Shown here: one piece after another, positions 46,910 to 64,000 of the stretch
Layout: each line of letters opens with the position of its first letter
Position numbering within the stretch: position 1 is the first letter of the stretch
Virus record (IMG/VR): IMGVR_UViG_3300032267_001484
Reading direction: 5' to 3' (one strand)
DNA length: 64,000 nucleotides
From: a virus
The notes under the pieces: model-generated
What the model was told of the DNA's origin: nothing
Databases searched by the model: none
The model's input: the letters and a program-made list of their open reading frames with translations, nothing else
Translations under genes and position numbers: made by a program

Positions 46910-49101
46910 TAATAAAACCCTCCATCTATGTCTAAAGTAAATGATGATGTTGTTGAAAATGATGCTGTTCCTAATAGCGAACCAGTAAATGAACCAGTAA
47001 ACGAACCAGTTGCTCTTAATGTAGTACCATCATACGTTAATGTTGGTACACCTCCAAAAGCTCCTGCATTATTATATTGTATTTGTGTAGTTGAACCACC
47101 AGGTGTGCCACCACCGCCACCACCAGTAGAACCAGAAGCAGCAGTTGTAATTACATTACCACTTGAGTCTACTGCTAATACAGCAGCTACTGTTCCAGGA
47201 AATGATGATGTTGATGTGTATCTATAGAAAGCCAATTGGCCTGTATCTGATATTCTTACTCTTTCAGCTATACCAATAGCAGAACCAGAAGCTACTGTTT
47301 GTGATGCTGTTGTATAAAAAGATATTCTATCTTCTAATATAATAGCACTACGCCCAGCAGGAGAAGAAAAGGTAGATGTAAAATTATTAGTAGTAACAGT
47401 GCTAGGTACACAAGCATATGATATTACAGGACCACCACTAGAACGATTAGTTCCAAAATTAGTTAAGTTACCTGCTGTATAATAGTCTTGAAGTATAACT
47501 GTTCCTTCAGTTGCTGTATTTGATCCAGCTTTAATAGAACCAGCATTTATGTCTAAAGCTACAGTTGGTGCTGTTGTTCCTATACCAACTTTACCTCTTA
47601 ATATTGTTCTTATAATACTACTATTACCTAAAGTAACTGTATTTGAACCATGACCCACATTACTAGCACCTATTACAATTTCGTTTTGTCCATTACTTTG
47701 AGAGGCATAAGCTGAAACTCCTATATAAATGCTATTATCAGCTGTAGTATTTGCTGTGAGTCCGTCACCTAAAGTGTCTCCTGCATACCACCCAACAGCC
47801 ACATTAGAACCACCATCTGTATTACTTGCTAAGGAATTATATCCAACAGATGTATTTGCTTGACCTGAGGTATTAGAAAATAATGCTCCTTCACCTAATG
47901 CTGTGTTTTGAGTTCCAGTAAGATTATTTCTCATAGCAAGAGCACCCACAGCAGTATTGCTAGCTGCACCAGCAGCATTACTTGCTGACAGGGCATTCCA
48001 CCCTATAGCAGTATTTCTAGTAGCTGTTGTATTTCTAGCTAAGGCTTGGAAACCAAAGGCAATATTTTCAACAGCATTTCCTGCACCTCTTCCTATAGTA
48101 AAAGTATTTACATTTATATCAGTACTACTTGTTATACTACCTGTTACTCTAAGAGAACCTGTAATATCTTGGTCTCCTCTTACTACTAATTCAGTACCAG
48201 CAGATCCTGATAGTGTTAGGCTACCTGTTATTGTTTGGTTACCAACAAATGTGTTTGAACCAGTAGTTGCAAATACTGTGCTGTCTAACCCATCTAACAA
48301 ATTAGCATTACTTGCAAATGATGCTGTTGATACAAATGATGCTGTTTGGGCGGTAACTACAAATGAAGCTGTATTAGCTGTTTGAGCTAATGTTGCAAAC
48401 GAAGCAGACACTGCTTGAAGTACATATGATGCTGTTTGAGCAGTTGTAACGAATGATGCTGTTTGAGCGGTTGTTACAAAAGATGCAGTAGCAGCTGTGC
48501 CTAATAAGGATCCGGTAAAGTTAGAAGCAGATACTGCTCCAACTACAGTTAATGACCCTGTTATCCCTACACTACCTGTAAATTGGTGTGTATTAGATAT
48601 TAAACTGCCGAAGCGAGTAGAACCAGTAACAAAATTAACAGATGATGTTATTGTTTGTACTACTATTGTAGTAGCAGTTAATGTATTTCTAACAGTAAAA
48701 TTATCAGCAGATGATGCTGTTGATGCAAACGAAGAGGATATTGCATTCAAAACATAAGAAGCAGTAATAGCTTGAGAGGCACTAGTTGCAAAAGATGCTG
48801 TTCCTAACAATGAACCAGTTATACTACCTGTTACTATTAGACTACCGGATATTTTTACATTTTTAGACGAGTCAACAGCAAGTATATCAATACTACCTGT
48901 CGATACTGAAAATAAATTTGTATTTGATGCTGTTACATCTGTAATAGAAAATACACTACCAGCACTTCCAGACACACTAAGTATAGTAGAACCGCTTCCA
49001 ATAAGTCGTAATGCAGTAGCATTTGATGATGCAGACATTATAGTACTGCCCGTTACGGATAGCGAATTAAAACTTGCTGTATCTGTATAAAATATTGGCA
49101 T
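46909..49101 (-). CDS. fibre protein with YadA-head-like (NTAxG) repeats
   Basis: NTAIGWNAL/NTAVGALA/NTALGEGAL repeats, shared TAS and QTITSS modules, C-terminal IDGGFY. Confidence 0.8.
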   Translation of the reverse strand: MPIFYTDTASFNSLSVTGSTIMSASSNATALRLIGSGSTILSVSGSAGSVFSITDVTASNTNLFSVSTGSIDILAVDSSKNVKISGSLIVTGSITGSLLGTASFATSASQAITASYVLNAISSSFASTASSADNFTVRNTLTATTIVVQTITSSVNFVTGSTRFGSLISNTHQFTGSVGITGSLTVVGAVSASNFTGSLLGTAATASFVTTAQTASFVTTAQTASYVLQAVSASFATLAQTANTASFVVTAQTASFVSTASFASNANLLDGLDSTVFATTGSNTFVGNQTITGSLTLSGSAGTELVVRGDQDITGSLRVTGSITSSTDINVNTFTIGRGAGNAVENIAFGFQALARNTTATRNTAIGWNALSASNAAGAASNTAVGALAMRNNLTGTQNTALGEGALFSNTSGQANTSVGYNSLASNTDGGSNVAVGWYAGDTLGDGLTANTTADNSIYIGVSAYASQSNGQNEIVIGASNVGHGSNTVTLGNSSIIRTILRGKVGIGTTAPTVALDINAGSIKAGSNTATEGTVILQDYYTAGNLTNFGTNRSSGGPVISYACVPSTVTTNNFTSTFSSPAGRSAIILEDRISFYTTASQTVASGSAIGIAERVRISDTGQLAFYRYTSTSSFPGTVAAVLAVDSSGNVITTAASGSTGGGGGGTPGGSTTQIQYNNAGAFGGVPTLTYDGTTLRATGSFTGSFTGSLLGTASFSTTSSFTLDIDGGFY

Positions 49102-49140
49102 ATATTAATAAATATTTATTTTGTTATTTATATTATAATA

Positions 49141-49596
49141 CTAACAAGATCCACTAGTAACTGTTATTGGTGCTGGGTCTAAGGTTCCATAAAATACCCA
49201 TTGGGTTTCTAAATAAGGATTCGATGGTGCAGGAAAGGTAAGACCTTCATATAGCTCAATTCTTTCTCCTGAGATACTGCATATTATATATGTGCCATTA
49301 GCGGTTGAATTATCTATACTATAAAAGAAAGGCCCAGGGGATTGATAGACTGGACTAGTATACCCATTAAATGTTTGGTAACCAATAAAAGTGTATGTTT
49401 CATTTGCGGCTGCAACTCCACTAACACATATCGGTCCAGTATATGGAGTTAAAGGTTGAGGAAATGTAGGATCAGTATTTATATTAATACTTCCATTTCT
49501 ATTTACTCTACAATATGTGTTTATAGTTATTGCAGTAGTAGTATCAGTTTTATTTACACTACTATTATTAAGACTACCATTTATTATAACTCCCAT
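49141..49596 (-). CDS. hypothetical protein
   Basis: Packed ORF after the 49604 fibre. Confidence 0.6.
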   Translation of the reverse strand: MGVIINGSLNNSSVNKTDTTTAITINTYCRVNRNGSININTDPTFPQPLTPYTGPICVSGVAAANETYTFIGYQTFNGYTSPVYQSPGPFFYSIDNSTANGTYIICSISGERIELYEGLTFPAPSNPYLETQWVFYGTLDPAPITVTSGSC

Positions 49597-49603
49597 ATAT
49601 TAA

Positions 49604-51523
49604 TTAATTAAATGCTGTTGCAATCCAATACACAGGTCCTGTTAATGCAACTGATGAATTTGAATTTATTGTAAAACTTCCTGATGTTTTATTTTGTATT
49701 GTCCATGATCTTGCATCTTCTCCTGTTACTGTTACTGCGTATAAGTTGTTAGAAAATGCACTTCCAAATGTTATTGATGATGTTCTCGGTGTTCCTGTAA
49801 ATGAAGCAGCTGATCCTGATCCTGCTTTTGCACTAGTGCCTCCACCAGGTGCCCACGATGCAGATGTAGCAAATGAGGCAGATACTGCCTGTAAAACATA
49901 CGAAGCAGTTTGAGCAGTTGTAACAAACGATGCAGTTTGAGCGGTTGTAACAAAGGATGCTGTATTGGCTGTTTGAGCTAAGGTTGCAAAAGAAGCAGAT
50001 ACAGCTTGAAGTACATATGATGCTGTAGAAGCAAAAGAAGCAGATACTGCTTGAAGAATGTATGATGATGTTACTGCGTTTGATGCCCAAGAAGCAGTAC
50101 CAAACAATGACCCAGTATAGCCTAAAGTTGCTGTTGAACTACCAGTTATAATTTCATTACCTATTACAGTTAATGATCCTGTCACTAAAACACTACCTGT
50201 TATTGTTTGGTTACCCCTAAAGGTATTTGAACCAGTTGTTGCAAATGAACTAGTTTGCGCGTTTGTTACGAACGAAGATGTTTGTGAGTTAAGCACATAA
50301 GGTGCTAACATTGATGCGGTTGCACTTGTAAGTACATAAGCTGGGGCTAGAGCAGCTGTAGCAGCAAATGATGCACTCAACACCGTCATTGACGATGTCT
50401 GTGCATTAGTTACAAACGAGGATGTCTGGTTTGATAATACTGCACTGCTTCCATTAACTGTTAAGCTACCAGTTATATCTACACTACCAGTGAATTGGTG
50501 TGTGCTAGTAGCTATGTTACTGCCAAAACGAGTAGAACCAGTAACAAAATCAATACTTGAGGTAATGGTTTGTACTACAATTGTTTGTGCTGTTAAAGTA
50601 CCTCTAACAGTAAAATTATCAGCAGAAGATGCTGTAGAGGCAAATGATGCACTTAGTACAGACATTGACGATGTTGCACTAGTAAGTACGTAGTTGGGTG
50701 CTAAGGCTGCTGTAGCGGCAAATGATGCACTTACTGCATTTAATATATAAGAAGCAGTAACAGCTTGAGAGGCATTGGTGGCAAACGATGCTGTTCCTAG
50801 TAATGAACCTGTAAATGAAGTAGCAGACACATTTCCAGACACACTAAGACCAGAATTCATTATGAATCCTGATGTATTTGTAGCTTCAAAGGTAGTAGTA
50901 GCTGATGTAGAAATTATTCTAAATCTTCTAGCAGATAGTGATTGTAATTCTAAAGCTACAGTTGCACTTCCGCCAGCATTTAAAACAGCAGGAGTTGAAG
51001 AAACAGTTGTTGTTACTGTAAGACCATTAGCACTATTTATTAATGTATCACCAGAAATTCGGCTTGTGCCATTTACATCTAATTTATAGATAGGTATATT
51101 AGTTCCGATTCCTATATTGCCAGATGAAGATACATAAAGTATATTATCAGCAACATTGCTATCTATTTCAAGTAATCCTCCAGTACTTCCTGAGATGTGT
51201 AGTAATGTTGTGGGATTTTCTAATCCAATACCAATTCTAGATTGAGAGACAAAAAGTGCTCGTTGTCCATATTGACCAATACGGACTGTATTGTCAGAAA
51301 ATGCTTCTATTATGGGTAAACCAGCAGCAGTATTAACAGAAAATAATGATCCAGAAAGTGAATCATCAACGGAAAATAAACGGCCTGATGTGCCGTCAAC
51401 AGTAAATACACTAGATCCTGAGGCATTAATTGCTAAAGCTCCAGAAATAGCGGATGAGCCACTTATATTGGCTCCACCTTGGTCTACTAATAGACCATTT
51501 TTGACTTTAAATTCGTTTGGCAT
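49604..51523 (-). CDS. fibre protein (MPNEF type)
   Basis: N-terminal MPNEF and LFSVDDSLSGSLFSV..GLPIIEAFSD module shared with the 53924 gene. Confidence 0.8.
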   Translation of the reverse strand: MPNEFKVKNGLLVDQGGANISGSSAISGALAINASGSSVFTVDGTSGRLFSVDDSLSGSLFSVNTAAGLPIIEAFSDNTVRIGQYGQRALFVSQSRIGIGLENPTTLLHISGSTGGLLEIDSNVADNILYVSSSGNIGIGTNIPIYKLDVNGTSRISGDTLINSANGLTVTTTVSSTPAVLNAGGSATVALELQSLSARRFRIISTSATTTFEATNTSGFIMNSGLSVSGNVSATSFTGSLLGTASFATNASQAVTASYILNAVSASFAATAALAPNYVLTSATSSMSVLSASFASTASSADNFTVRGTLTAQTIVVQTITSSIDFVTGSTRFGSNIATSTHQFTGSVDITGSLTVNGSSAVLSNQTSSFVTNAQTSSMTVLSASFAATAALAPAYVLTSATASMLAPYVLNSQTSSFVTNAQTSSFATTGSNTFRGNQTITGSVLVTGSLTVIGNEIITGSSTATLGYTGSLFGTASWASNAVTSSYILQAVSASFASTASYVLQAVSASFATLAQTANTASFVTTAQTASFVTTAQTASYVLQAVSASFATSASWAPGGGTSAKAGSGSAASFTGTPRTSSITFGSAFSNNLYAVTVTGEDARSWTIQNKTSGSFTINSNSSVALTGPVYWIATAFN

Positions 51524-51531
51524 GTGTATTT

Positions 51532-51553
51532 ACTGTTTTCACTTTCCGACAGC
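51532..51553 (-). promoter_or_regulatory. 5'-UTR hairpin with a GGAAAGUGAA loop
   Basis: GCUGUC-GGAAAGUGAA-AACAGU, ending 8 nt before the ATG. Confidence 0.6.
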
Positions 51554-51565
51554 TACGAATAAATA

Positions 51566-51829
51566 TTAAGACATCATACTACCTGACGGGTTAGTCCATT
51601 CTTCTGTAGCTAATATTGTTAATATTTGATCGTAAGTATAGGGTCCTTCTTTAGTTGTTAATACTTCTATTGATGATGGGATTGTTTCTCCATCCCATTT
51701 TACAAATGTTTTTGTTTCGTCTACTGATTTTCTTACTGTATCAATAGATGTTTCTAATACTTGAGTAAAGTCAACGTTTGGTAGTTCTGATACGTTGAAG
51801 ATCATGAATTCTCTGTTTTCGTATGACAT
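51566..51829 (-). CDS. small acidic partner protein (paralogue of 58938-59198)
   Basis: YENREFMIFNVSEL..DFTQVLETSIDTVRKSVD.TKTFVKWDG. Confidence 0.8.
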   Translation of the reverse strand: MSYENREFMIFNVSELPNVDFTQVLETSIDTVRKSVDETKTFVKWDGETIPSSIEVLTTKEGPYTYDQILTILATEEWTNPSGSMMS

Positions 51830-51832
51830 AGT

Positions 51833-52495
51833 TTATAAATTAAAGCGTGATTTTTGTGCGTTATAATTTTGTAGGACTTCTTGAGCTGAGAGTGCTCTGT
51901 TGTATATTTGGACAGGTCCAATATTTCCATTTATTGTATTTGTGTTGGCACCTCCAATACTAAAACCACTCCAAGCTAGTGGAGTTGTCATATTTTTACT
52001 AATTAAAAATGTGCCATTTTTATAAAATGAACCTACTCCTGATCCATAGGTAAAACAAAAAGATTGGTACACTCCGGTAAATACTATTTGACTAGTTAAA
52101 TCAGATGGAGTAATTCTTGTAGGTATATCTATTCCTACATATACTCGACCAGTAGTTGTTGTATGAAAAACAAAAAATCCCCATCCATTTGTGGCTCCTA
52201 TAAATTGATTATAATCAGTTGAAGTATTTGGTTTAATTATCCAAAATAAAGTAAATGAAGATGGTGTCCATGTAATACTAGGTATACTAACATAATCATC
52301 TACACCATCAAACACAATATTTCCTCCATTAGCACTATTATAAGTAGGTCCATTTATTAATGATCCACTATTGTTATTTCCGCTTACATCACTCCAAGTA
52401 GTTCCACTACCAGGATAAGAATTTCTATCAGCAGCATCTAATGCTAATACTAATCCGTCTGTTACTATTTTACCAAATGCGTATTGTGTTGCCAT
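51833..52495 (-). CDS. LamG/ConA-like lectin-domain protein (paralogue 6)
   Basis: GLVLALDAADRNSYPGSGTTW...FDGVDDY...IYNRALSAQEVLQNYNA. Confidence 0.88.
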   Translation of the reverse strand: MATQYAFGKIVTDGLVLALDAADRNSYPGSGTTWSDVSGNNNSGSLINGPTYNSANGGNIVFDGVDDYVSIPSITWTPSSFTLFWIIKPNTSTDYNQFIGATNGWGFFVFHTTTTGRVYVGIDIPTRITPSDLTSQIVFTGVYQSFCFTYGSGVGSFYKNGTFLISKNMTTPLAWSGFSIGGANTNTINGNIGPVQIYNRALSAQEVLQNYNAQKSRFNL

Positions 52496-52499
52496 AACT

Positions 52500-53252
52500 T
52501 TATAGATTGAATCTTGATTTTTGTGCGTTGTAATTTTGTAGGATTTCTGATGCTGAGAGGGCCCGGTTGTAGATTTGAACTATAGAAATATTAGCCTCTA
52601 TAGGATATGGAGAGATAGAAACGTCGGATTCTGATGCTATACATAAAGTTCTAGCATTACTGACATTTCCCACAGTCGCAAAAGATGCAGCTCCTACATA
52701 AGACTGTAAAGTTTGGGTAACAGCGTTTAGATAAATAGAAACATTAGATTGTGTTCTAATTCCAACAACTGTAGCCATTTGCCATAATCCATTTCTAATA
52801 TTTGCGCCTGAGGTTTGTATTGAATATGATCCATTTGCACCCCAACTACCATTTACACTAGCTATACCGAATCCTAAATTAGTTCCATTAGATCCATTAT
52901 TAACTAACCATCCATAATCAGAAGTAGGATTATCACCTATTGATTTTGCTATGAATGTACTTGGAAATGTTGGTTCTGTTGTTTTAAAAAAAAAGTTAAT
53001 AGTAAAATCTGATGTTCCGAAATTACCTACTGTGTTATTTATACTAGCATAATCATCAACTCCATCAAACACAATGCTACCACCATTAGTAGAGCTGAAT
53101 GTAGGTCCATTAGTTAAAGTTCCATTGTTATTATTAGCAGTTAAATCTGTCCAAGTAGTACCACTACCAGGATAGCTATTCCTATCAGCAGCATCCAGCT
53201 CTAATACTAAGCTACTATCTCTTACTATATATGGTCCACCTGATACTCCCAT
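52500..53252 (-). CDS. LamG/ConA-like lectin-domain protein (paralogue 5)
   Basis: Same conserved termini as the other paralogues. Confidence 0.88.
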   Translation of the reverse strand: MGVSGGPYIVRDSSLVLELDAADRNSYPGSGTTWTDLTANNNNGTLTNGPTFSSTNGGSIVFDGVDDYASINNTVGNFGTSDFTINFFFKTTEPTFPSTFIAKSIGDNPTSDYGWLVNNGSNGTNLGFGIASVNGSWGANGSYSIQTSGANIRNGLWQMATVVGIRTQSNVSIYLNAVTQTLQSYVGAASFATVGNVSNARTLCIASESDVSISPYPIEANISIVQIYNRALSASEILQNYNAQKSRFNL

Positions 53253-53254
53253 AG

Positions 53255-53914
53255 TTATAAGCCGAATCTTGTTTTAGTTGCGTTGTAATTTTGTAGGACT
53301 TCCTGTGGTGATAAAGCACGGTTGTATATTTGAACATTGGCTATATTACCAAGAAAAAAAGAATTTATCACTGGGGAGTTTCCTATATAGACGTCGTTAC
53401 TATCTATTCCAACAGTGCTTCCTGCAGTTGTGGAATTTATAATTCCATTAAAGTATACATTTTTTGAAGTACTATTTATAGTTCCTACTATATTGCACCA
53501 TATAGGATCTCCAATTGTAGGTATTGTTGTTGAAAGTAATTGACTTCCATTTGTCCAAAAAGCAAACTGTTTAACGTTAGGAGCAATATTCATGTAGTAT
53601 GAAGATATATAACTTTTTCCTATTACAATTTGATTTAGATTTGTTGTTGTACGAATCCATGCTGATAGTGTAAGAGTTGTTAAGTCTAAAGAAGCCGGCT
53701 TACCTAGATTAACAATATCATCAACACCATCAAACACAATACTACCCAAATTAGCACTACTAAAAGTAGGTCCATTAGTTAAACTACCACTATTGTTATT
53801 TCCAGATACATCAAACCAAGTAGTTCCACTACCAGGATAAGAATTTCTATCAGCAGCATCTAAAGATAATACTAACCCATTAGTAACTATTCTAGGTCCA
53901 TTCCCAAATCCCAT
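53255..53914 (-). CDS. LamG/ConA-like lectin-domain protein (paralogue 4)
   Basis: Same conserved termini as the other paralogues. Confidence 0.88.
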   Translation of the reverse strand: MGFGNGPRIVTNGLVLSLDAADRNSYPGSGTTWFDVSGNNNSGSLTNGPTFSSANLGSIVFDGVDDIVNLGKPASLDLTTLTLSAWIRTTTNLNQIVIGKSYISSYYMNIAPNVKQFAFWTNGSQLLSTTIPTIGDPIWCNIVGTINSTSKNVYFNGIINSTTAGSTVGIDSNDVYIGNSPVINSFFLGNIANVQIYNRALSPQEVLQNYNATKTRFGL

Positions 53915-53923
53915 ATAACAATT

Positions 53924-56900
53924 TTATAATAAATTAGCAATAGATTTTACTGTCCATGAACCAGGAGCTGTAAAGTTAAGGTTTACATTTGCTCCTGATA
54001 ATACTACAGCAAATGAAGCTGTAGCTGTATTTCCTATATCTGTAGTTGTTACTTCAGTATATCTAACTGTTGTTCCGTTCCATACAGACATTACTTGACC
54101 TGATCTTGCATTTGAAGCGGAAGCAATTGTATAGTTGTAGAAACAAGATGTATATGATCCTGTTGCTAATGACGATACAGTTGTTGTACCGGCTGCTGTT
54201 ACAGATGAGGTATTATTGAATTGAGATGAGCCAATTGTGAATTGATTCGCATATGAAGCGGTTGCAGCATACGATGCACTTACTGCATTTAGTACATATG
54301 ATGCTGTGGCTACAGACATAGATCCTGTCTGATTACTCAACACTACTGCACTTCCATTAACAACTAGGCTACCACTTACACTTACACTTCCTGTAAATTG
54401 ATGTGTGTTTGTAATTATACTGCCAAAACGGGTAGAACCAGTAACAAAATCAACACTTGAAGTAATGGTTTGTACTACAATTGTTTGTGCTGTAAGTGTT
54501 CCTGCTACCGTAAAGTTATCAGCATATGATGCTGTTACAGCAGATTTTACAGACATAGATGATGTCTGTGATGTTAGCACGTATGGAGCCAACATTGATG
54601 ATGTTACACTAGTTAACACATATGGTTGTAACATTGATCCTGTAGCACTAGTCAAAACATAGTTAGGTGCTAATGCAGCAGTTGCTGCAAATGAAGCACT
54701 TAATACAGACATTGAAGATGTCTGTGAAGTTAATACATACGGTGCTAACATTGATGATGTTGCACTTGTAAGTACATATAAAGGAGCAAACGAAGCTGTA
54801 GAAGCAAGTGAAGCGGTTCCAGTTAAGTTTGCAACTACATTTGATGATACATTTAATGTTCCTGAAATTGAATAGTTACCAACTAGTGTTTTAGAGTTAA
54901 TCCATTGTGATCCATTATAATATAATAAATCACCTGCTACTCTACCTGCTGCATCTACATCAGATAAACCCTCTAATGTAATTGGTACTGGAGCAGTGCC
55001 TGATGATCCTACACCACCCACAGATCTGAATAATCCTCCTGGGATGATTGTTGTTTCATCGGCATTTAATAAGTCTCTTCCACTACCACCTTCAATAATA
55101 ATATATCCTAAGAATATAGCGTTTATTGCTGTATTTGGAGCCTCTACAAATGGTTCAGAATCTTTAGCATTTACAGCGTTTAATAGAGTAGAATACTTAG
55201 CATTGCCGTAGTAAACTATAAATGCGTTTGTCGGTGAGTTTGGAATCCAGAATACTCTTTGAATACTCCAGTTACTATTACCTACAGTAGCTAAATTACC
55301 TGTTGTTGTATTAACATATTGAGTATTATCAATAGTTGTATAACCAGCAGCACTAACACCAGTATCAATTACTGGGGTAGATCCTGAAATATAATAGCGA
55401 TATATTTTAGATGTATTAATAGCATTTTCTACTGTTGTAGAAGGATGGTTTGCATTAAAACGATAGTTAGCACCTTCTTTATAAGCAGTACCACCTGTTT
55501 TAATAATACTTAATGTTGGTGAGCTACCACTAGGTGATAAAACATGTCCTGATATTTTTAATGGTCCGAATGCTCTAAAGAAGTCATCTGCTTTTTGTGG
55601 TTGACCATATGATATTTGAGGAGCACTAAATACACCTGTAGATACACTACCTGATAAGTGTAATACAACACCTAAATTAATTTGAGTATCAAATTGATTA
55701 ATATCAGTAGAACCCCAAGGTACTGTTTGTTGAACAGGTGTTCCTGTATTATCTATACCAACATAAGTTAATTTAGCTGACCCGGAATTGGTAATTGGAA
55801 TGTTTGTTAAATTATCCCAAGTTACATATTGTACTGTTGGATAGGGACTGCTTGATGTAGAGGCATTTTGTGTTACAATAATACCACTACCAGAACTAAT
55901 ATTCCATGTAGTTGATCCTATGGATGATGATATCACACCACCGTTTAATATACCTGTATATAAACCGGATTCTAACCAACGTAAACGAGTTGTATTTGCA
56001 TACCCGGATCCATTTTGGGAGAAATATAAGTCATTTGTAGATCCACTTACATAAATGTAAGATGCAGATATTGAAGTATCTATAGTTCTACCTATAGGAT
56101 TAAATCTAGTAACACCCGTAAATTGAGTATCTCCATAAATTTGAATAGTTGGAGTTGATGGATTTTCTGATCCTGACATTATAATACTGCCTGTTAATAC
56201 AGTATTACCAATTAAAGTATTATTACCAATTTGAGTAGTAGAACCAGTAATTAATAATGATCCTGTAATTGTAGTTGATGTATTACGGAAAATTGTTGTA
56301 CCAAATATAGTAGTAGACCCACTAATATTAACACTACCACTTAAAACAGTATTTCCTGTTAATGTATTATTGCCTGTTTGGGTAGTAGAACCAGAAACTA
56401 ATAAACTACCAGTTATTGTTACTACTTGACATAATGGATTTACATATGAAGCTGTTTGAGAATTAATTGCATTAGAGGCATTTGATGCAGATTCTGCGTA
56501 TAATGCATAAGAAGCAGTAGCAACAGAACCGGATTGAGATACAGTTACGTTAAATGTACTTCCATCACCTTTAGTGAAGGTGATTGTTGTATTTACAGCG
56601 GATGCTGTTACTAAAAATGAACCCGTATTTACTGTTGCTCCACCAGCATTTAGTGCATAAGAGGCAGTTATTGCATATGATGCACTTAATACAGACATTG
56701 AAGATGTCTGTGAAGTAAGTACATATGGTTGCAACATTGAGCTAGTTGTACTTGTAAGTACATATAATGGTGCCAATGCAGCAGTTGCTGCAAAAGATGC
56801 ACTTACTGCATTAAGAATATAAGATGATGTTAATGCGTTTTGTGCCCAAGACGCAGTGCCAAATAGTGATCCTGTTATTACAGGAGCATTAAGAGAACCA

Positions 56901-58228
56901 GTTATACTTACACTACCAGTAACAGTCATATTACCAGCAAATCTGCTAGATCCAGATACTTGAAGACGTTCACCAGAATCAGATGTTGAGCCTATTGCAA
57001 GATTGCCTGTTGAGAATAGCCGCATTCTTGAATTTGCAGTAATAGCAAAATCTATTGTATTAAGATTTAGAGTATCTATTCCTGTTGGAGTTAACACCAA
57101 AATAGAATTACCACCTGTTGGACTTTGAATCCACATGCCACTATTGCTATATATATGCAAAGGTCTTTGTGGTGCATTAGTACCAATACCTAAACTACCA
57201 GATAAGAAGTTTGGAGCCGTACCAGAACCATATAATCCCCAAGATGCGGATGGTGATGTTGCGGCATTGTTTGACCATTCAATACTTCTCCAATCAGCAG
57301 CAGCGGTTAAGGTAGGATTAACGTACAATCCACGGGTAATGCCTGTAGCTCCAGAAGATTGACTAATAATCGGAGATAGTAATAATTGAGTATTAGTGGC
57401 GCTTCCTCCAACAGGATTAAACGTTTGATTTATAGTAGCAACTGTACTAGATATTACATTTATTGCCGGAAGAAAACTAAAAGTTATTCCACCACCAGTA
57501 CCTTGAGGGTGGTTGAAAATAAAACCTCCAACATTTGCTGAGCTCCAAGATCCTAATATTTGCGCTGCTTGATATTCATCTACATTTTGATATCTTAATA
57601 ACGATACTGATGAGCCGTTATTTGTTCCACCTATTCTTTGTTGAATAGTAATAACTGGTGTAGTCTGCGATGCAACAACACTCATTAACTGAGTACCATC
57701 AATGGTCAAACTCCCAGTTATACCTACACTACCTGTAAATTGATGGGTATTTGATAATAAGCTTCCAAAACGTGTAGATCCAGTTACGAAATCAGTAGAT
57801 GATGTAATTGTTTGAGCTACAATCGTTTGAGCAGTTAATGTACCTCTTACAGTAAAGTTATCTGCTGAAGAGGCAGTTGCAGCATATGAGGCACTAACTA
57901 CAGAGCCAAGTAAAGTTTGAGCTGTTAAAGCATAAGATGATGTTACTGCATTATTTGCCCAACTTGCAGTACCTAATAGACTTCCTGTAATTCGGGCAAA
58001 GCTTCCAGAGACTTTAATAGCCTCTGCATTAAACGTTCCTATGTTTACGGTATCGTCTGAGAAAGCCTCCATTACGGGGATACCTGAAATATCTTTTACT
58101 GAAAAAAGAGAACCTGACAAAGAGTCTGTTATTGAAAACAATTGTCCTTGGGAACCTTGTACGTCAAGTATTACTGAGCCAGAACCATTTACAATGAGTT
58201 TTTTTCTAACTCTGAATTCGTTTGCCAT
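53924..58228 (-). CDS. 1434-aa mosaic fibre protein (MANEF type)
   Basis: Shared fibre modules; C-terminal domain homologous to that of the 60608 gene. Confidence 0.82.
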   Translation of the reverse strand: MANEFRVRKKLIVNGSGSVILDVQGSQGQLFSITDSLSGSLFSVKDISGIPVMEAFSDDTVNIGTFNAEAIKVSGSFARITGSLLGTASWANNAVTSSYALTAQTLLGSVVSASYAATASSADNFTVRGTLTAQTIVAQTITSSTDFVTGSTRFGSLLSNTHQFTGSVGITGSLTIDGTQLMSVVASQTTPVITIQQRIGGTNNGSSVSLLRYQNVDEYQAAQILGSWSSANVGGFIFNHPQGTGGGITFSFLPAINVISSTVATINQTFNPVGGSATNTQLLLSPIISQSSGATGITRGLYVNPTLTAAADWRSIEWSNNAATSPSASWGLYGSGTAPNFLSGSLGIGTNAPQRPLHIYSNSGMWIQSPTGGNSILVLTPTGIDTLNLNTIDFAITANSRMRLFSTGNLAIGSTSDSGERLQVSGSSRFAGNMTVTGSVSITGSLNAPVITGSLFGTASWAQNALTSSYILNAVSASFAATAALAPLYVLTSTTSSMLQPYVLTSQTSSMSVLSASYAITASYALNAGGATVNTGSFLVTASAVNTTITFTKGDGSTFNVTVSQSGSVATASYALYAESASNASNAINSQTASYVNPLCQVVTITGSLLVSGSTTQTGNNTLTGNTVLSGSVNISGSTTIFGTTIFRNTSTTITGSLLITGSTTQIGNNTLIGNTVLTGSIIMSGSENPSTPTIQIYGDTQFTGVTRFNPIGRTIDTSISASYIYVSGSTNDLYFSQNGSGYANTTRLRWLESGLYTGILNGGVISSSIGSTTWNISSGSGIIVTQNASTSSSPYPTVQYVTWDNLTNIPITNSGSAKLTYVGIDNTGTPVQQTVPWGSTDINQFDTQINLGVVLHLSGSVSTGVFSAPQISYGQPQKADDFFRAFGPLKISGHVLSPSGSSPTLSIIKTGGTAYKEGANYRFNANHPSTTVENAINTSKIYRYYISGSTPVIDTGVSAAGYTTIDNTQYVNTTTGNLATVGNSNWSIQRVFWIPNSPTNAFIVYYGNAKYSTLLNAVNAKDSEPFVEAPNTAINAIFLGYIIIEGGSGRDLLNADETTIIPGGLFRSVGGVGSSGTAPVPITLEGLSDVDAAGRVAGDLLYYNGSQWINSKTLVGNYSISGTLNVSSNVVANLTGTASLASTASFAPLYVLTSATSSMLAPYVLTSQTSSMSVLSASFAATAALAPNYVLTSATGSMLQPYVLTSVTSSMLAPYVLTSQTSSMSVKSAVTASYADNFTVAGTLTAQTIVVQTITSSVDFVTGSTRFGSIITNTHQFTGSVSVSGSLVVNGSAVVLSNQTGSMSVATASYVLNAVSASYAATASYANQFTIGSSQFNNTSSVTAAGTTTVSSLATGSYTSCFYNYTIASASNARSGQVMSVWNGTTVRYTEVTTTDIGNTATASFAVVLSGANVNLNFTAPGSWTVKSIANLL
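56952..57192 (-). repeat. 241-bp near-identical repeat, copy 1 (copy 2 at 62826-63066)
   Basis: Ungapped match; about a dozen differences, almost all synonymous. Confidence 0.9.
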
Positions 58229-58236
58229 AATTTTAT

Positions 58237-58258
58237 CCTTTTTTCATGTTCCAAAAGG
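58237..58258 (-). promoter_or_regulatory. 5'-UTR hairpin with a GGAACAUGAA loop
   Basis: CCUUUU-GGAACAUGAA-AAAAGG, ending 8 nt before the ATG. Confidence 0.65.
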
Positions 58259-58264
58259 TCGACA

Positions 58265-58272
58265 ATAAATAT
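58265..58272 (-). promoter_or_regulatory. putative late promoter core ATATTTAT (representative of about 16 copies)
   Basis: Also at 6904, 11843, 13963, 18738, 19436, 27471, 30332, 31374, 31952, 33712, 34819, 43272, 45663, 49108 and 51559, each just upstream of a start codon. Confidence 0.75.
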
Positions 58273-58284
58273 GTACATATCAAG

Positions 58285-58938
58285 CTATAGTCCGTATCTT
58301 GATTTTAAGGCTTCGTAGTTTTGTAGGACTTCTGTTGCTGGTAGGACTCGATTGTATACTTTTAAACAGTATAAATTTCCTGTAAGTTGTTCATTAAATC
58401 CATTAACATCACTTCCTATTCTAAAATTAATATTTGATGGAATATTCCCTGTTAGAGTACCAGTATTATTTAATAGTCCATTTATATATAATCTAACATT
58501 TCCTGATCCATCCCTTGTTGCTGCCATATGATATGTTCCTAGTGGTAATGGTGCGTTTACTACATATACGGCACCATTTATCCAAATACCATATCGTCCA
58601 GCAAACCAAACTCCTAAACCATATCCGTTTCCATAATTTGTAAAAATAGCTCCGTTTGAAGCTCCTGTCGTTTTATAAAAAGACTCAATAGTAAAAGGAT
58701 TTGTGCCTGCTATTATATTATTACTGTTTAAATCAGCGTAGTCATTAGTTCCATCAAAGACTATACTGCCACCATTAGCAGAATCAAAAGTAGGTCCATT
58801 CACTAATGATCCGCTATTTCTATTCCCGCTAACATCATTCCAAATAGTGGATCCAGGAACATAAGACCTTCTATTAGCTGCGTCTAAAGCTAAGACTAGT
58901 CCGTTGGTTATTATATTTGATCCTCCTATCGTAGCCAT
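58285..58938 (-). CDS. LamG/ConA-like lectin-domain protein (paralogue 3)
   Basis: Same conserved termini as the other paralogues. Confidence 0.88.
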   Translation of the reverse strand: MATIGGSNIITNGLVLALDAANRRSYVPGSTIWNDVSGNRNSGSLVNGPTFDSANGGSIVFDGTNDYADLNSNNIIAGTNPFTIESFYKTTGASNGAIFTNYGNGYGLGVWFAGRYGIWINGAVYVVNAPLPLGTYHMAATRDGSGNVRLYINGLLNNTGTLTGNIPSNINFRIGSDVNGFNEQLTGNLYCLKVYNRVLPATEVLQNYEALKSRYGL

Positions 58939-59198
58939 TAGGGCATCATTGGGTTTGGATCAGTCCATTCTGGTGTAGCTAGTATTGCTAGGATCTCATC
59001 ATAAGTGTAAGGTCCTTCTTTTGTAGTTAGTCCTTGTACTGATGATGGGATTTCTTGTCCATCCCACTTTACGAAGGTCTTGGTTTGATCTACTGATTTG
59101 CGAACAGTATCAATAGACGTTTCTAATACTTGAGTAAAATCGATCTGATCTAGTTCAGATACGTTAAAGATCATGAATTCTCTGTTTTCGTATATCAT
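58938..59198 (-). CDS. small acidic partner protein (paralogue of 51566-51829)
   Basis: Start at 59198 (MIYENREF) by alignment with its paralogue; roughly three-quarters identical. Confidence 0.8.
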   Translation of the reverse strand: MIYENREFMIFNVSELDQIDFTQVLETSIDTVRKSVDQTKTFVKWDGQEIPSSVQGLTTKEGPYTYDEILAILATPEWTDPNPMMP

Positions 59199-59199
59199 A

Positions 59200-59910
59200 T
59201 TATTCTGGGTTATATCGTGATTTTTGTCCTTCGTAGTTTTGGAAGATTTCTGTTGCTGAGAGTGCTCTATTATATATTTGAAAATTATATATATTACCAT
59301 CCATAATATCTGCTCCAGCTCTATATCCTATTTGAGTATTTCCCACATCATATGCTAAACTAACGTTTCCATCTGTTTGACCAGCATAAGATACTTCTAA
59401 TCCATTATAGTATAATTTTATGTTGCTGTCTCCAGCATTAACTGTTGCAGTTATCATAAAAATTCTGTTTGCTGTTATGTATCCTGTTGTTGATATTGCA
59501 AATTTTTGATCATTCCCAAGTGATATAAAAAAATCAGATCCATTATTCCCGGATGCAGTTATAAAAAATCCTTTACCGGCACTGTAAGGATAACAATTAC
59601 TTATTAGTGTTATTCTATTACCAAAACTTGTCGGTTGAGGAGTTGTTTTATTTAATCTAATCCAAGCATTTACTGTAAATCTGTTAGATACATTTACATT
59701 TAAAGCAGTAACTACAAAATCATCGACTCCATCAAACACAATACTCCCTAAATTAGCAGAATTAAATGTAGGTCCATTAATTAAAGTACCATTATTCCTA
59801 TTTCCGCTTAAATCTCTCCACGTTGTAGAACCATTAACGTATGATTTTACATTAGCAGCATCTAATGATAGTACTAATCCATTTGTTATTGTATTGGGTC
59901 CTGTAAACAT
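59200..59910 (-). CDS. LamG/ConA-like lectin-domain protein (paralogue 2)
   Basis: Same conserved termini as the other paralogues. Confidence 0.88.
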   Translation of the reverse strand: MFTGPNTITNGLVLSLDAANVKSYVNGSTTWRDLSGNRNNGTLINGPTFNSANLGSIVFDGVDDFVVTALNVNVSNRFTVNAWIRLNKTTPQPTSFGNRITLISNCYPYSAGKGFFITASGNNGSDFFISLGNDQKFAISTTGYITANRIFMITATVNAGDSNIKLYYNGLEVSYAGQTDGNVSLAYDVGNTQIGYRAGADIMDGNIYNFQIYNRALSATEIFQNYEGQKSRYNPE

Positions 59911-59913
59911 TTA

Positions 59914-60606
59914 TTATAAGTTAAAGCGTCCTTTTAGTGCGTTATAGTTTTGTAGTATTTCTGATGCTGATAGGGCACGATTATATACTTGAGCAACTGC
60001 ATTATACCCACTTGTAAAAAGGGAAGTACTTATACTTCCTATCCACCATCCATTTGTTGATGTTCTTAAACTTGTACCAGATGTTAATACTGTTCCGTCA
60101 AGAACTCCATTTACATAACATTGAATTGATGAGCCTGCTATCCAAACACCAGTAATATAATACCATGTATTAAGTGCTAATGTAATTGTACCTGTTGTTC
60201 CTAATCCAACAACTGATGGCACTGTAGGTACAACTGCAGCTTGAGCAATTCCACCAGTAGTGATACTTAATTGTAAGCTCCATCCACTACCGGCACCATC
60301 TCTACCCCTTCCTAAAATATATTTTACTTCAGAATAATTATCATTATTAAACCAAGCAGAAAAAGTATAACTATCTGCTGCTGAACCTGAATAAGGTGTA
60401 GATATCCAATCATCAGTTCCATCAGTAAATATACTTCCTCCATTGGCACTATTAAATGTAGGTCCATTAGTTAATGTTCCTATAATATTATTTCCACTCA
60501 AATCTCTCCAAGTAGTTCCACTACCCGGATAAGATTTAGTATTAGCTGCGTCTAAAGCTAAAACAAGTCCATTTGTAACTATATTTGGTCCTCTTTGAAA
60601 CGCCAT
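59914..60606 (-). CDS. LamG/ConA-like lectin-domain protein (paralogue 1)
   Basis: Same conserved termini as the other paralogues. Confidence 0.88.
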   Translation of the reverse strand: MAFQRGPNIVTNGLVLALDAANTKSYPGSGTTWRDLSGNNIIGTLTNGPTFNSANGGSIFTDGTDDWISTPYSGSAADSYTFSAWFNNDNYSEVKYILGRGRDGAGSGWSLQLSITTGGIAQAAVVPTVPSVVGLGTTGTITLALNTWYYITGVWIAGSSIQCYVNGVLDGTVLTSGTSLRTSTNGWWIGSISTSLFTSGYNAVAQVYNRALSASEILQNYNALKGRFNL

Positions 60607-60607
60607 A

Positions 60608-63600
60608 TTATAACATTCTTACTAGTGATCGAATAGTCCAAGCGTTATTTGATGCTGTCGCTTGTAATTGTATGTTACTTCCGCTAATTGCGGCTTGTAA
60701 AGTTACTCCAGCAGTTGATCCACCAACATCTCCTGTGTAGTTCTCATAGTATTCTGCGTAAGAAGCACTCCAAACAGAATAAATTGTTCCTGCTCTAGCG
60801 ATTGAGCCGCTAAACATTACGTAATCGAAGAAGGCAGCTCTATAAGAAGCAGTAGGTTCTGAAGAAATTACTCTCCATGATCCTGAAGTTACATTGGTGT
60901 TTTCTTGAAACTCTATATTAGTATTTCCTACATTTAAACTTCCACTTACATAGAAATTAGTAGCATATGAGGCGGTTGCTGCGTAAGAAGCACTAACAAC
61001 AGATCCAAGTAAGGTTTGAGCTGTTGTAGCGTATGAAGCTGTTACTGCGTTTTGAGCCCAACTTGCAGTGCCAAATAAAGAACCAGTAAACCCTAAAGTA
61101 GATGTTGTAGATCCAGTTATTACTAAACTACCAGTAATTAAAGCAGAACCAGTAAATGGAAAAGAAGCGCCTCCACCTCCTGTGGCGTTGATAGTAACAG
61201 ATCCTGTTCCACTTGTAGGAGATATAGTTACATTTGTACCTGCTATAATTTGAGTAACGCCACCATTTAAAGCATAAGATGCTGTTATTACATTAGTAGC
61301 CCAACTTGCAGTACCGAAGAGAGAACCTGTGAAGTTAGTTGCAGTTATAGAACCAGATATGGATTGAGAGCCAGAATTAGTTAATACTTCTTGCCAACCT
61401 GGAGTGGAACCAGAATTGTACATCCATAGACCTTCTGTTGCTGAGTCTATGTCGTATACTAGTAAACCTCTGGCAGGAGTTCCTATAGCAGTTCTTTGTG
61501 CTGCAGTCATCCTTGGAGCAAGGAAACCTTGATCAGTAGAATCAACTTGCAGCATTGAACTTGTGTGCATGTTAAGTGCATTAGCAGTAGCTGTAATTAA
61601 TGCTCTATTTGATAATAAACCTAATGATACGTTACCTCCAGAAGCTCCACCGGCTGCATATATTGAAGCACCTTGATTGTTATTATTACTAACACCTAAA
61701 CTACTATATGCTTTTATACCTACTGCTGATGTGACTTGTATACCAGTTGCACCATTATGGCCTGTATTTAATACTACCATTGTAGTACCACCAACAGTAT
61801 ACCTATCTACATAGAATGTACTATCTCCATTTAATATTCTACCATCATTTCTAGCTATAAGTGTTGATACTAAGTTACTATTTACTATATTTAATCCATT
61901 AGTACCACTAGTAGCTCCACTACCAGTAATAACCATATCACCCGCAAATCGACTAGATCCTGATACATCTAGTCTAAATGATGGTGATGCTGTACCTATA
62001 CCAACATTGCCAGAACCGCTTACATAAAATACACTTCCAGCAGTTGAGGAATTTATTAAAAATAAAGAATTATCAGAACCAGATACATGAAGTCTAGCAG
62101 AAATAGTCTGATCATTTCCCCCAATGCGTACTCCAGCTGATGTCATGTGCATATATTGGGTTGCACTAGAGTACGCTGTAAGCGTTATTCCTGAGTTATT
62201 TCTAATAATAAGCCTGTTTCCTGTTCCGTAGGTATCTATAAAAGAATCCGATCCTCCAGGAGTAAGAGACATATTTGTTGCTCCAGTATTATAAAACCCA
62301 GTTAGAGTTATTGTAGAGTTAGCACTTGAAGTCATTCCTATACTTCCTGTACCTAAAGAATTAGTTATTAATACTGTACCTTGATTTGATAAACTACCAG
62401 TTATACTTACTGAGCCAGTAAACTGATGTGTATTAGTTGATAAGGAGCCGAATCTTGTTGATCCAGTTACAAAATCAGTAGACGATGTAATAGTTTGAGC
62501 TACAATTGTTTGTGCTGTAAGGGTACCCCTAACTAAGAAGTTATCGGCACTAGATGCTGTTGCAGCAAATGATGCACTTATTGCATTAAGAATATAAGAT
62601 GATGTTAATGCATTTTGAGCCCAACTTGCAGTTCCAAACAATGATCCTGTAAAGTTAGTTGCATTTACGCTTCCACTAATACTGAGTGAGCCTGTTACAG
62701 TATGAGTATCAGTGATTGTATTACCTATAGTTACACCTGTGTTTGTAACTTGAAACTCAACTGAACTACCGGTGATGACTGTTAGTGAGCCTGTAATGGC
62801 TGTATTTCCTGATAGTTTTGTTGAGCCAGATACTTGTAGACGTTCACCAGAATCAGAAGTTGAGCCTATTGCAAGATTGCCTGTTGAGAATAAGCGCATC
62901 TTTGAATTTGCAGTAATAGCAAAATCTATTGTATTAAGATTCAGAGTATCTATTCCTGTTGGTGTTAATACTAAAATAGAATTACCACCTGTTGGACTTT
63001 GAATCCACATGCCACTATTGCTATATATATGCAAAGGTCTTTGTGGTGCATTAGTTCCAATACCTACATTACCAGATGAGGATACATATAATATGTTGGC
63101 TAATGTATTACTATCTATTTCAAATAGACCTCCAGTAGTTCCTGATACATGTAGTAAAGCTGTAGGAGATAAATGTCCTATTGCTACTCTATCACTTGCA
63201 ACTACAAAAGGATAACTAGTTGCAGTATTACCTAAAAGTACTGCGGAACTTCCTCTCATTCCTACATTTACTCCACTAAAACCAGCATAATATAATGCCC
63301 CAATATATTCTGCGTAACTATAAGCTAACTGCCCACCAACAGCACCATTCAATGTAAAATTTGTACCACTTCCTATTGTAAATGCAGATGTTCCAGACAC
63401 TCCAACACCAGCTGTAATAGTAGCACTGCCAGTAATAACCATATTACCAGCAAACTTACTAGAACCAGATACTTGAAGACGATCGCCTGAGTCTGTAAAA
63501 GTGCCTCCGTCTTGTATTAAAACATTACCATTTCTAAATATTCTTAACTTTTCAGATACAGTTGAAACATTTCGTGTAAAAAATCCTAATCCAACACTAT

Positions 63601-64000
63601 AAGATGATTGGTCAACAGTTGTTATAGACGCGCCACTCGCAGCATCTGATGCTCCAAAAAATCTCAATGAAGTTTCAACAGCAGTACCCGCAGCACCATT
63701 CGGTCTTACTATTATGTTTCCTGCTAATGTTATTACACCCAAATTACTTGGCGTATTAGTCCCTATCCCCAATCTCTTATTAGTATTATCCCAAAAGAAA
63801 TTAGTGTTATCTTCTGCAATATTATCTGTAGCTCCAGCAAACAATACACTTCCAGTAGATAAATAAGGAAGAGTTAAACTTCCAGTAATACTAACAGAGC
63901 CAGTAAACTGATGAGTATTACTTAATGAACTACCAAATCTAGTTGATCCAGTAACAAAATCAGTACTTGAGGTTATAGTTTGAGCTACAATTGTTTGAGC
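60608..64000 (-). CDS. mosaic fibre protein (5' end lies beyond the window)
   Basis: Frame is open to base 64000 (AQTIVAQTITSSTDFVTGSTRFG...); GFLAPRMTAAQRTAI..PARGLLVYD module. Confidence 0.82.
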   Translation of the reverse strand, partial: AQTIVAQTITSSTDFVTGSTRFGSSLSNTHQFTGSVSITGSLTLPYLSTGSVLFAGATDNIAEDNTNFFWDNTNKRLGIGTNTPSNLGVITLAGNIIVRPNGAAGTAVETSLRFFGASDAASGASITTVDQSSYSVGLGFFTRNVSTVSEKLRIFRNGNVLIQDGGTFTDSGDRLQVSGSSKFAGNMVITGSATITAGVGVSGTSAFTIGSGTNFTLNGAVGGQLAYSYAEYIGALYYAGFSGVNVGMRGSSAVLLGNTATSYPFVVASDRVAIGHLSPTALLHVSGTTGGLFEIDSNTLANILYVSSSGNVGIGTNAPQRPLHIYSNSGMWIQSPTGGNSILVLTPTGIDTLNLNTIDFAITANSKMRLFSTGNLAIGSTSDSGERLQVSGSTKLSGNTAITGSLTVITGSSVEFQVTNTGVTIGNTITDTHTVTGSLSISGSVNATNFTGSLFGTASWAQNALTSSYILNAISASFAATASSADNFLVRGTLTAQTIVAQTITSSTDFVTGSTRFGSLSTNTHQFTGSVSITGSLSNQGTVLITNSLGTGSIGMTSSANSTITLTGFYNTGATNMSLTPGGSDSFIDTYGTGNRLIIRNNSGITLTAYSSATQYMHMTSAGVRIGGNDQTISARLHVSGSDNSLFLINSSTAGSVFYVSGSGNVGIGTASPSFRLDVSGSSRFAGDMVITGSGATSGTNGLNIVNSNLVSTLIARNDGRILNGDSTFYVDRYTVGGTTMVVLNTGHNGATGIQVTSAVGIKAYSSLGVSNNNNQGASIYAAGGASGGNVSLGLLSNRALITATANALNMHTSSMLQVDSTDQGFLAPRMTAAQRTAIGTPARGLLVYDIDSATEGLWMYNSGSTPGWQEVLTNSGSQSISGSITATNFTGSLFGTASWATNVITASYALNGGVTQIIAGTNVTISPTSGTGSVTINATGGGGASFPFTGSALITGSLVITGSTTSTLGFTGSLFGTASWAQNAVTASYATTAQTLLGSVVSASYAATASYATNFYVSGSLNVGNTNIEFQENTNVTSGSWRVISSEPTASYRAAFFDYVMFSGSIARAGTIYSVWSASYAEYYENYTGDVGGSTAGVTLQAAISGSNIQLQATASNNAWTIRSLVRML
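62826..63066 (-). repeat. 241-bp near-identical repeat, copy 2
   Basis: Matches 56952-57192. Confidence 0.9.

Follow-up and report, generated by a model that had tools for sequence, protein, structure and literature searches.

A conserved and covarying hairpin in the leaders of M(A/P)NEF-type putative tail-fibre genes of phages, a candidate translational operator

The locus and its two leader hairpins

A stretch of 64,000 nucleotides (nt) of viral DNA from the IMG/VR record IMGVR_UViG_3300032267_001484, referred to here as the window, contains two putative tail-fibre genes whose products begin with the residues MPNEF and MANEF. Just upstream of each start codon lies a small hairpin with a 10-nt loop, which is the subject of this work. 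According to the list of open reading frames (ORFs), all genes of the region are on the minus strand, and the two leaders and their genes are organised as follows.

51559..51566, minus strand: late-promoter-like motif ATATTTAT of the MPNEF gene, read directly
After ATATTTAT (51566-51559), minus strand: 5-nt gap TCGTA between motif and stem, site 1
51532..51553, minus strand: hairpin 1, arms GCTGTC (51553-51548) and AACAGT (51537-51532)
51547-51538, minus strand: loop of hairpin 1, GGAAAGTGAA (RNA GGAAAGUGAA), 10 nt, read directly
51524..51531, minus strand: spacer from hairpin 1 to AUG, AAATACAC (RNA AAAUACAC), 8 nt
49604..51523, minus strand: MPNEF-type putative tail-fibre gene, ORF of 639 amino acids (aa), ATG at 51523
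58265..58272, minus strand: late-promoter-like motif ATATTTAT of the MANEF gene, a presumed promoter
After ATATTTAT (58272-58265), minus strand: 6-nt gap TGTCGA between motif and stem, site 2
58237..58258, minus strand: hairpin 2, arms CCTTTT (58258-58253) and AAAAGG (58242-58237)
58252-58243, minus strand: loop of hairpin 2, GGAACATGAA (RNA GGAACAUGAA), 10 nt, read directly
58229..58236, minus strand: spacer from hairpin 2 to AUG, ATAAAATT (RNA AUAAAAUU), 8 nt, A/U-rich
53924..58228, minus strand: MANEF-type putative tail-fibre gene, ORF of 1434 aa, ATG at 58228
60608..64000, minus strand: third paralogous fibre gene, an ORF that runs off the window, so that its start and leader are outside

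An initial annotation, made from the letters of this DNA, had described the leaders as ATATTTAT, 5 or 6 nt, a stem of 6 base pairs (bp) with a 10-nt loop, 8 nt and ATG, and every detail of this layout holds on the minus strand. Direct reading also bears out that 8 of the 10 loop positions are identical and that both spacers to the ATG measure 8 nt. The stem of hairpin 1, GCUGU(C)/(A)ACAGU, contains a C-A mismatch at the loop-closing pair. As the annotation had stated, the other fibre leaders are devoid of the hairpin, which we could verify for the fibre-like starts of the window at 49101, 45655 and 43251.

The two copies would by themselves carry little weight. Loop-type words (GGANNTGAA) occur 5 times in the window against 2.3 expected, which is not significant, and the single-sequence folds of the two hairpins (-2.9 and -5.6 kcal/mol) are no better than those of shuffled sequences, with z-scores of 0.8 to -0.9. 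Because word counts and fold energies are unremarkable, two copies alone remain within chance and homologues are needed to settle the matter.

The window comes from a large phage with a contractile tail and encodes a tail sheath, a tail-fibre-like protein of 2024 aa, a family-B DNA polymerase, a helicase and a ribonucleotide reductase. A megablast search of cultured phages with the region gave no nucleotide match. The closest relatives of the tail sheath are found in the Flavobacterium phage immuto (49.5 % identical across 99 % of its length) and in a Microcystis phage (50 % over 68 %). The 639-aa and 1434-aa proteins are paralogues, with 44 % identity over the N-terminal 95 aa and serine/threonine-rich repeat modules in common; a TAQTIVAQTITSSTDFVTGSTRFGS module is shared by both genes and the third paralogue. 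They are assigned to the tail fibres by the N-terminus of the 1434-aa protein, which is 53 % identical to immuto gp047, annotated as “tail fiber protein”, and by neighbours that match tail-fibre and tail-spike PHROGs. Since the two genes themselves match no Pfam or PHROG family, the term “putative” is retained. In the search for the leader of the third paralogue, an exact 37-mer was absent from the viral contigs, and a metagenome scan yielded only a 94 % relative, whose gene starts with MPNEF and carries the same hairpin.

Conservation of the hairpin in homologous leaders

Searching IMG/VR at the protein level with the 100 N-terminal residues encoded by each gene yielded 121 loci, to which a pattern scan and one metagenome scan added more. 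The leader set comprises every distinct leader of an M(A/P)NEF start with a fibre-like continuation, with no condition placed on the leader itself. The sequence GGA-N4(5)-GAA is found within the last 40 nt of 51 of the 53 distinct IMG/VR leaders, and in 47 of the 53 this loop is directly flanked by a stem of at least 3 bp. Eight further hairpin leaders come from metagenomes, with new stems such as GCUUUGG/CCAAAGC and ACUUUAG/CUAAAGU. In all, at least 50 contigs of related phages contain the hairpin.

Stem sequences are entirely different from one lineage to another. They include CCUUUU/AAAAGG, CUUUUU/AAAAAG, ACCU/AGGU, CCC/GGG, GCUGUU/AACAGU, GUCUCAG/CUGAGGC, CCUUAG/CUAAGG, AUUAGU/ACUAAU, AUCUU/AAGAU, AUUACU/AGUAAU, CCAUUUU/AAAAUGG and UUUACUUUU/AAAAGUAAA. 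Most relatives possess the fully paired GCUGUU/AACAGU. The closing C-A mismatch of site 1 recurs in three more leaders, close relatives of site 1 among them, and is seen in the close relatives L090, L095 and L252.

A gap-free alignment of 41 distinct sequences, none of them from the window phage (A2; the companion alignment A1 includes the two window copies), contains six invariant bases, G10, G11, A12, G17, A18 and A19, and A14 is conserved in more than 90 %. For the six stem pairs 94 % of the cells are paired, every pair has changed on both sides, and more than 12 different stems are represented. The covariation score of 0.886 compares with at most 0.27 when the partners are slid by 1–3 columns, and it was reached by none of 500 shuffles, a control which ignores phylogeny; kinship is addressed by the slid-partner control and by the number of unrelated stems. 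The helix is also obtained with RNAalifold on A1. Homologues thus decide in favour of the hairpin by the combination on which the initial annotation had made it depend, a conserved loop and a covarying stem in M(A/P)NEF leaders. The loop had been given as GGAA-NN-UGAA; its conservation stands but the consensus is wider, GGA-N-A-N-N-GAA, the U of UGAA being C or G in some lineages.

A covariance model built from A2 (R2), and hence blind to the window, retrieves exactly two significant matches on both strands of the 64 kb, hairpin 1 with 32.1 bits (E 1.2e-5) and hairpin 2 with 29.5 bits (E 5.7e-5); the next-best match in the window has an E-value of 0.19. Among 888 kb of phage DNA, mostly from unrelated contigs, R2 gave 12 matches with E up to 1, and each of them is an M(A/P)NEF leader. 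Seven related phage records scanned as a whole gave a single clear copy in six and none in one; two of the six copy-carrying records contain a weak extra match, and the one inspected (L251) looks like chance. Immuto, the nearest isolate, has neither a MANEF start nor the hairpin, and no carrier of the motif was found among the cultured phages of the collection searched. As defined for R2, the family comprises stems of at least 3 bp directly flanking a GGA-N4-GAA loop, 0–12 nt upstream of an M(A/P)NEF start, and both window sites belong to it.

A cmscan of positions 44000-64000 against Rfam 15, on both strands and with E up to 10, produced no match at either hairpin and four chance-level matches elsewhere, and a full-text search of the literature found no description of the hairpin. 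The absence of a matching Rfam family fits the initial suggestion of an undescribed motif, and the idea of a structured, covarying and apparently undescribed cis-regulatory RNA specific to M(A/P)NEF leaders is supported by homologue conservation, by R2 and by the negative outcome in Rfam and the literature. At the level of sequence comparison the hairpin is a real element, under selection as a structure with a fixed loop, specific to one gene class and held at a constrained distance from the AUG.

Some leaders depart from the common design. Two MANEFIARKG genes (L218:570-628 and L226:515-573) have no GGA..GAA hairpin and present CCC-CGGU/CGUU-GGG followed by AGAACCGU abutting the ATG; both contigs also contain a second MANEF gene with a normal hairpin. 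One lineage (L133:~1790-1845 and L218:2704) has an 11-nt loop, GGATATGTGAA, and in L133 the loop and 3' arm are tandemly duplicated. An AAACCCC-like box between promoter motif and hairpin, 5–10 nt upstream of the stem, occurs only in the M(A/P)NEF-[IV]-A-R-N-G class (L035, L037, L039, L099, L137, L313, L317 and L326).

Geometry of the leader

The motif ATATTTAT is located 3–40 nt 5' of about 16 minus-strand gene starts in the window, with first bases on the minus strand at 6911, 11850, 13970, 19443, 27478, 30339, 31381, 31959, 33719, 34826, 37201, 43279, 45670, 49115, 51566 and 58272. It is also enriched before the tail genes of phage immuto (L001), with 9 copies versus 3 expected, and appears to behave like a late promoter signal of this lineage. 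For the copies at 49115, 45670, 19443 and 6911 the ATG is only 4–7 nt away, which suggests leaderless or near-leaderless late mRNAs.

The distance from the end of the hairpin to the ATG is 0–12 nt with a median of 7, and lies between 5 and 10 nt in 40 of 47 leaders. The distance from the promoter-motif word TATTTAT to the stem ranges from 3 to 18 nt, and TATTTAT is absent within 60 nt in 9 of the 47. Since the former distance is narrow and the latter loose or not even defined, the hairpin is tied more tightly to the start codon than to the promoter.

Stems of 4–10 bp and arbitrary sequence carry the 10-nt loop; stem and loop together reach a median of only -3.1 kcal/mol, the Watson-Crick stems being weak. 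The invariant bases are the first three and the last three of the loop, next to the stem, and they keep these positions in the 11-nt loop variant GGAUAUGUGAA, an arrangement compatible with a G-A/G-A/A-G stacking of the loop ends on the stem. In essentially all stem types the 3' arm is rich in purines and A, and it spans about -8 to -14, including -12 and -13. According to PMC7797042, which cites Baez 2019, initiation in F. johnsoniae is better where structure is low and where A occupies -3, -6, -12 and -13. The hairpin would thus mask the A-rich upstream region that Shine-Dalgarno (SD)-independent ribosomes of the Bacteroidia type appear to use. In L036, L079 and L030 the 3' arm ends 0–2 nt from the AUG, and the stem must therefore open for initiation.

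Across protein classes only the first ~13 residues are common (M-[AP]-N-E-F-x-x-[KR]-[NK]-G-x-x-x), the remaining N-terminal region being about 20 % identical, so the conserved module consists of promoter motif, hairpin and a short anchor peptide. The initial annotation had considered the fibre N-terminus as the binding protein; judging from these identities, the whole N-terminal domain does not travel with the hairpin, which refines this idea.

The first codons have peculiarities of their own. Of 50 distinct M(A/P)NEF genes, 37 use AAC for the Asn at position 3 (58220-58222 and 51515-51517 in the window), although AAT accounts for 74 % of the later Asn codons of these genes; codon 2 ends in A in 41 of the 50. 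This bias may reflect an RNA-level constraint on the first codons. A pairing of the loop UGAA with the Phe codon was rejected, as this codon is UUU in 33 of the 50 genes. In L034 an ORF of 240 aa resembling GIY-YIG proteins (2289-3011, MEKGIIYKITS...YIGKT) is lodged between hairpin and spacer on one side and the fibre ORF on the other and has taken over the hairpin leader; the fibre starts with MNEF at 2998 and overlaps the end of the inserted gene. Within 51833-60606 of the window at least one Laminin_G_3 (concanavalin-like lectin) gene follows each hairpin-led fibre gene. The gene just upstream of the MANEF-class hairpin ends with ...YGL/FGL in many relatives, and the order of the fibre and lectin cassette is therefore conserved.

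A possible translational operator

Only 5 of the 56 window genes have an SD-like word in their leader, leaders are A-rich (0.47 versus 0.36 overall) and the G+C content is 33 %, features which point to a Bacteroidota host. Translation independent of SD sequences has been described in this phylum (PMC7797042, PMC9976891). Together with the nearest cultured relative, the features of the window suggest that the phage multiplies in a member of the Bacteroidota whose ribosomes do without SD pairing.

Since the loop is conserved, something presumably reads it. We favour, with a rough probability of 0.45, the interpretation that the hairpin is a gene-specific translational operator in the 5' leaders of late mRNAs for M(A/P)NEF-anchored fibres, in which a weak stem is clamped by a loop-reading factor. 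The reasons are the fixed asymmetric loop, the freely varying stem, the tight distance to the AUG, the marginal stability and the masked A-rich initiation region. That the element acts on translation and does so as a repressor, that a factor exists, its nature, and the host are points that we infer.

In mechanistic terms, the stem alone is only marginally stable. A putative trans-acting factor, most likely a phage protein made late, would recognise the invariant GGA and GAA loop bases, possibly stacked on the stem as G-A pairs. By clamping the hairpin it could lower or time the translation of large, low-copy fibres, which would otherwise use the strong ATATTTAT late signal shared with abundant virion genes. 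An operator common to all MANEF-anchor fibres suggests a co-regulation of proteins that compete for one docking site. This recalls the initial annotation, in which the hairpin would set fibre stoichiometry by binding a protein, perhaps the fibre N-terminus or a chaperone; both the protein partner and the effect on stoichiometry are hypothetical.

Several points weigh against such an operator. In four related phage genomes no homologue of RegA, CsrA or bS21 was detected, with the reservation that RegA (PF01818), unmatched in these four genomes (two of them complete), is equally unmatched in 14 of 14 control genomes and hence uninformative. The hairpin might also lie at the very 5' end of the transcript and influence mRNA stability rather than translation, and a positive role in ribosome docking would leave an identical comparative signature. 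The host is deduced only from the nearest cultured relative and leader composition, and the tail sheath is equally close to that of the Microcystis phage.

Alternative explanations

A purely cis-acting attenuator, in which the hairpin alone dampens initiation by engaging the A-rich upstream region in pairing, and GGA and GAA form purine-purine pairs that lengthen and stabilise the weak stem in the absence of any factor, is unlikely but survives best. It would account for the weak Watson-Crick stems, for the purine-rich 3' arms and for GGA and GAA staying next to the stem even in the 11-nt loop variant. However, any stable tetraloop would serve this purpose, and six loop bases plus A14 have remained invariant while the stems turned over completely, as is typical of a recognition site.

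Slightly lower stands a positive element: by binding a ribosomal protein or the 30S platform, the hairpin would bring SD-blind ribosomes to these genes, either in place of an SD or as a standby site. The hairpin is indeed placed where the SD helix would lie, at a tight distance from the AUG, the leaders are of a host type without SD, and the loop contains GGA and mostly also UGA. But the complementarity of the loop to the 3' tail of 16S rRNA (a sequence taken from general knowledge) averages -5.8 kcal/mol versus -5.45 for shuffled loops, 38 % of which are as good, and the GGA is ~20 nt from the AUG, against 5–10 nt for an SD; for these two reasons the loop does not qualify as an SD element either. 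In addition, the variant loops GCGAA and GGGAA lose the UGA, and a stem abutting the AUG (0–2 nt), as in three leaders, would block the mRNA channel.

To an equally limited extent the hairpin might be a 5'-terminal stabiliser or processing determinant: if late transcripts start just after ATATTTAT, it could cap the 5' end against decay or mark an RNase site. By analogy with T4 late promoters, transcription would start about 5–7 nt after the motif, and in 17 of 38 leaders, including both window copies, the stem begins 5–7 nt after TATTTAT. Nevertheless, the promoter-to-stem distance is looser than that to the AUG (3–18 nt, with TATTTAT missing within 60 nt in 9 of 47), an invariant 10-nt loop is not needed for such a function, and other long late genes in the window do without the hairpin.

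There is also a slim chance that the hairpin is the RNA half of a switch, coupled to assembly or to the state of the ribosome, that is special to phages of SD-blind Bacteroidia. In the assembly version, the GGA..GAA loop would be bound by the same baseplate partner that receives the MANEF anchor peptide, and translation of every fibre species using that socket would depend on sockets being free; in the ribosome version, direct contact of the loop with the 30S platform would replace the SD helix. Translational control of either sort, if true, would be new to a phylum for which hardly any has been described.

Two further proposals are highly improbable. A start codon within the loop (AUG, GUG or UUG) could open a tiny upstream ORF that delivers ribosomes to the fibre AUG, given that loop position 6 is A, G or U and never C in the main class, that several mini-ORFs end only a few nt away from the fibre AUG and that extra AUGs are otherwise avoided in initiation regions of Bacteroidetes (PMC7797042); yet the loops GGAAAGCGAA, GGAUAGGGAA and GGAAAGGGAA have no start codon, the GCG and GGG loop variants contradict the idea, length, frame and stop position are not conserved, and the invariant GGA and stem covariation would be left without a reason. 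An element with no function as RNA, inherited through duplication or module exchange or representing a site in DNA (a recombination junction, a homing-endonuclease target or a DNA-hairpin promoter), would agree with the paralogy of the two window genes, with the hairpin and the first ~13 codons travelling as one module and with the GIY-YIG-like gene inserted right after the hairpin in L034, but neither descent nor a duplex DNA site leads one to expect compensatory changes at six of six pairs, more than 12 stems and a fixed asymmetric loop. Moreover, a 10-nt loop on an A-T-rich stem of 4–6 bp would not extrude from duplex DNA.

Significance

Ribosomes of Bacteroidota ignore SD sequences, and gene-specific translational control in such hosts and their phages is very little known. 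An operator-type hairpin family in this SD-independent setting is therefore of particular interest: the element is compact (~26 nt), has strong comparative support and a fixed recognition loop, and sits where initiation is decided, in front of genes that determine host range. It also means that the conserved and exchangeable “head” of these fibre cassettes comprises promoter, hairpin and a 13-residue anchor and goes beyond protein sequence. The hairpin could be used as bait for a putative RNA-binding regulator, as a marker of this fibre cassette class in freshwater and marine viromes and possibly as a part for tuning expression in Bacteroidota.

Comparison with known systems

The closest parallel is the gp43 operator of T4 and RB69, a small leader hairpin whose loop bases are conserved and whose stem differs between the phages, and through which a phage protein represses translation (PMC3014915). 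Both are phage leader hairpins near the ribosome-binding region with a conserved loop and a variable stem. However, the gp43 operator has a UAAC-type loop of 4–8 nt, lies about 40 nt 5' of the AUG and belongs to a replication gene of the early/middle phase that has an SD (PMC3014915), whereas the 10-nt GGA..GAA loop lies 0–12 nt from the AUG of late fibre genes that lack one. An autogenous operator of the gp43 type can be set aside, there being no UAAC/CAAC loop and the downstream gene encoding a fibre rather than a polymerase.

In coat-protein operator hairpins of the MS2/PP7 type the loop carries the specificity. With the T4 RegA and gp32 operators, too, translation is lowered by a protein that binds a specific sequence within or adjoining the start region (PMC3014915). 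In contrast to the fibre hairpin, all these operators include the AUG itself, and their loop and stem architecture is different.

Targets of CsrA/RsmA have an invariant GGA in a hairpin loop near the start codon, and some fibre copies contain a second GGA in the 3' arm (AAAAGGA). But the A(N)GGA context and the loop of 5–6 nt are absent, and the second GGA is missing in whole classes (AACAGU and ACUAAU stems). The hairpin is thus no CsrA/RsmA target, its GGA being preceded by U, C or G of the stem and its loop measuring 10 nt. No CsrA gene was found in the four related phage genomes by a search that matched control genomes, and CsrA is, to our knowledge, not typical of Bacteroidota.

Hairpins that sequester the ribosome-binding site of T4 e, soc and I-TevI also adjoin a late promoter and control the translation of late genes. 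There, the late promoter is inside the hairpin and late transcripts are devoid of the 5' arm, whereas ATATTTAT is 3–18 nt upstream of a complete fibre hairpin whose loop is conserved. Late promoters of the T4 type are AT-rich octamers a few nt 5' of late gene starts; ATATTTAT, which may be comparable, recurs before ~16 genes and in immuto, with a sequence other than TATAAATA. The boxB element of lambda-type phages resembles the fibre hairpin in its short variable stem and conserved purine-rich loop read by a phage protein. However, the loop of boxB is GNRA-like and 5 nt long, and boxB serves in transcription elongation, remote from start codons; the fibre hairpin is tied to the AUG and has a 10-nt loop. 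Neither boxB nor the T4 design with a promoter inside the hairpin fits the geometry.

K-turns and K-loops are characterised by a 3-nt bulge followed by tandem G-A and A-G pairs, which would require GA at loop positions 4-5 and again ahead of the 3' arm. Positions 4-5 of the fibre loop are A, C, U or G followed by A, not GA, which disposes of this class. An intrinsic terminator, with its G+C-rich stem and subsequent U run, is similarly discarded, as the stems consist largely of A and U and lead into A-rich spacers (AUAAAAUU, AAAUACAC).

Fibres of the MPNWKK class possess a second, different conserved leader ~75 nt upstream of their starts (L041, L044, L045, L065 and immuto gp052, L001:3969-4046). 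It consists, in this order, of ATATTTAT, a hairpin CCC-tetraloop-GGG, AAGU, a second hairpin GG-N-stem/stem-NNN-CC, and AACC. The inner stem of the second hairpin covaries (CUG/CAG, CUGA/UCAG, CAC/GUG, CCGG/CCGG), and the leader looks like another candidate structured RNA. A link to the M(A/P)NEF hairpin through the common word GGAAGUG is superficial, since in the MPNWKK leader this word spans the linker between the two hairpins.

Candidate RNA motifs from comparative surveys, such as that of Weinberg et al. 2017 (PMC5737381), are catalogued in Rfam. They rest on the same kind of evidence, a conserved and covarying structure in front of a single class of genes, in DNA of phages or metagenomes. 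Next to them, the M(A/P)NEF hairpin is apparently an undescribed family of a known general kind, the phage leader operator.

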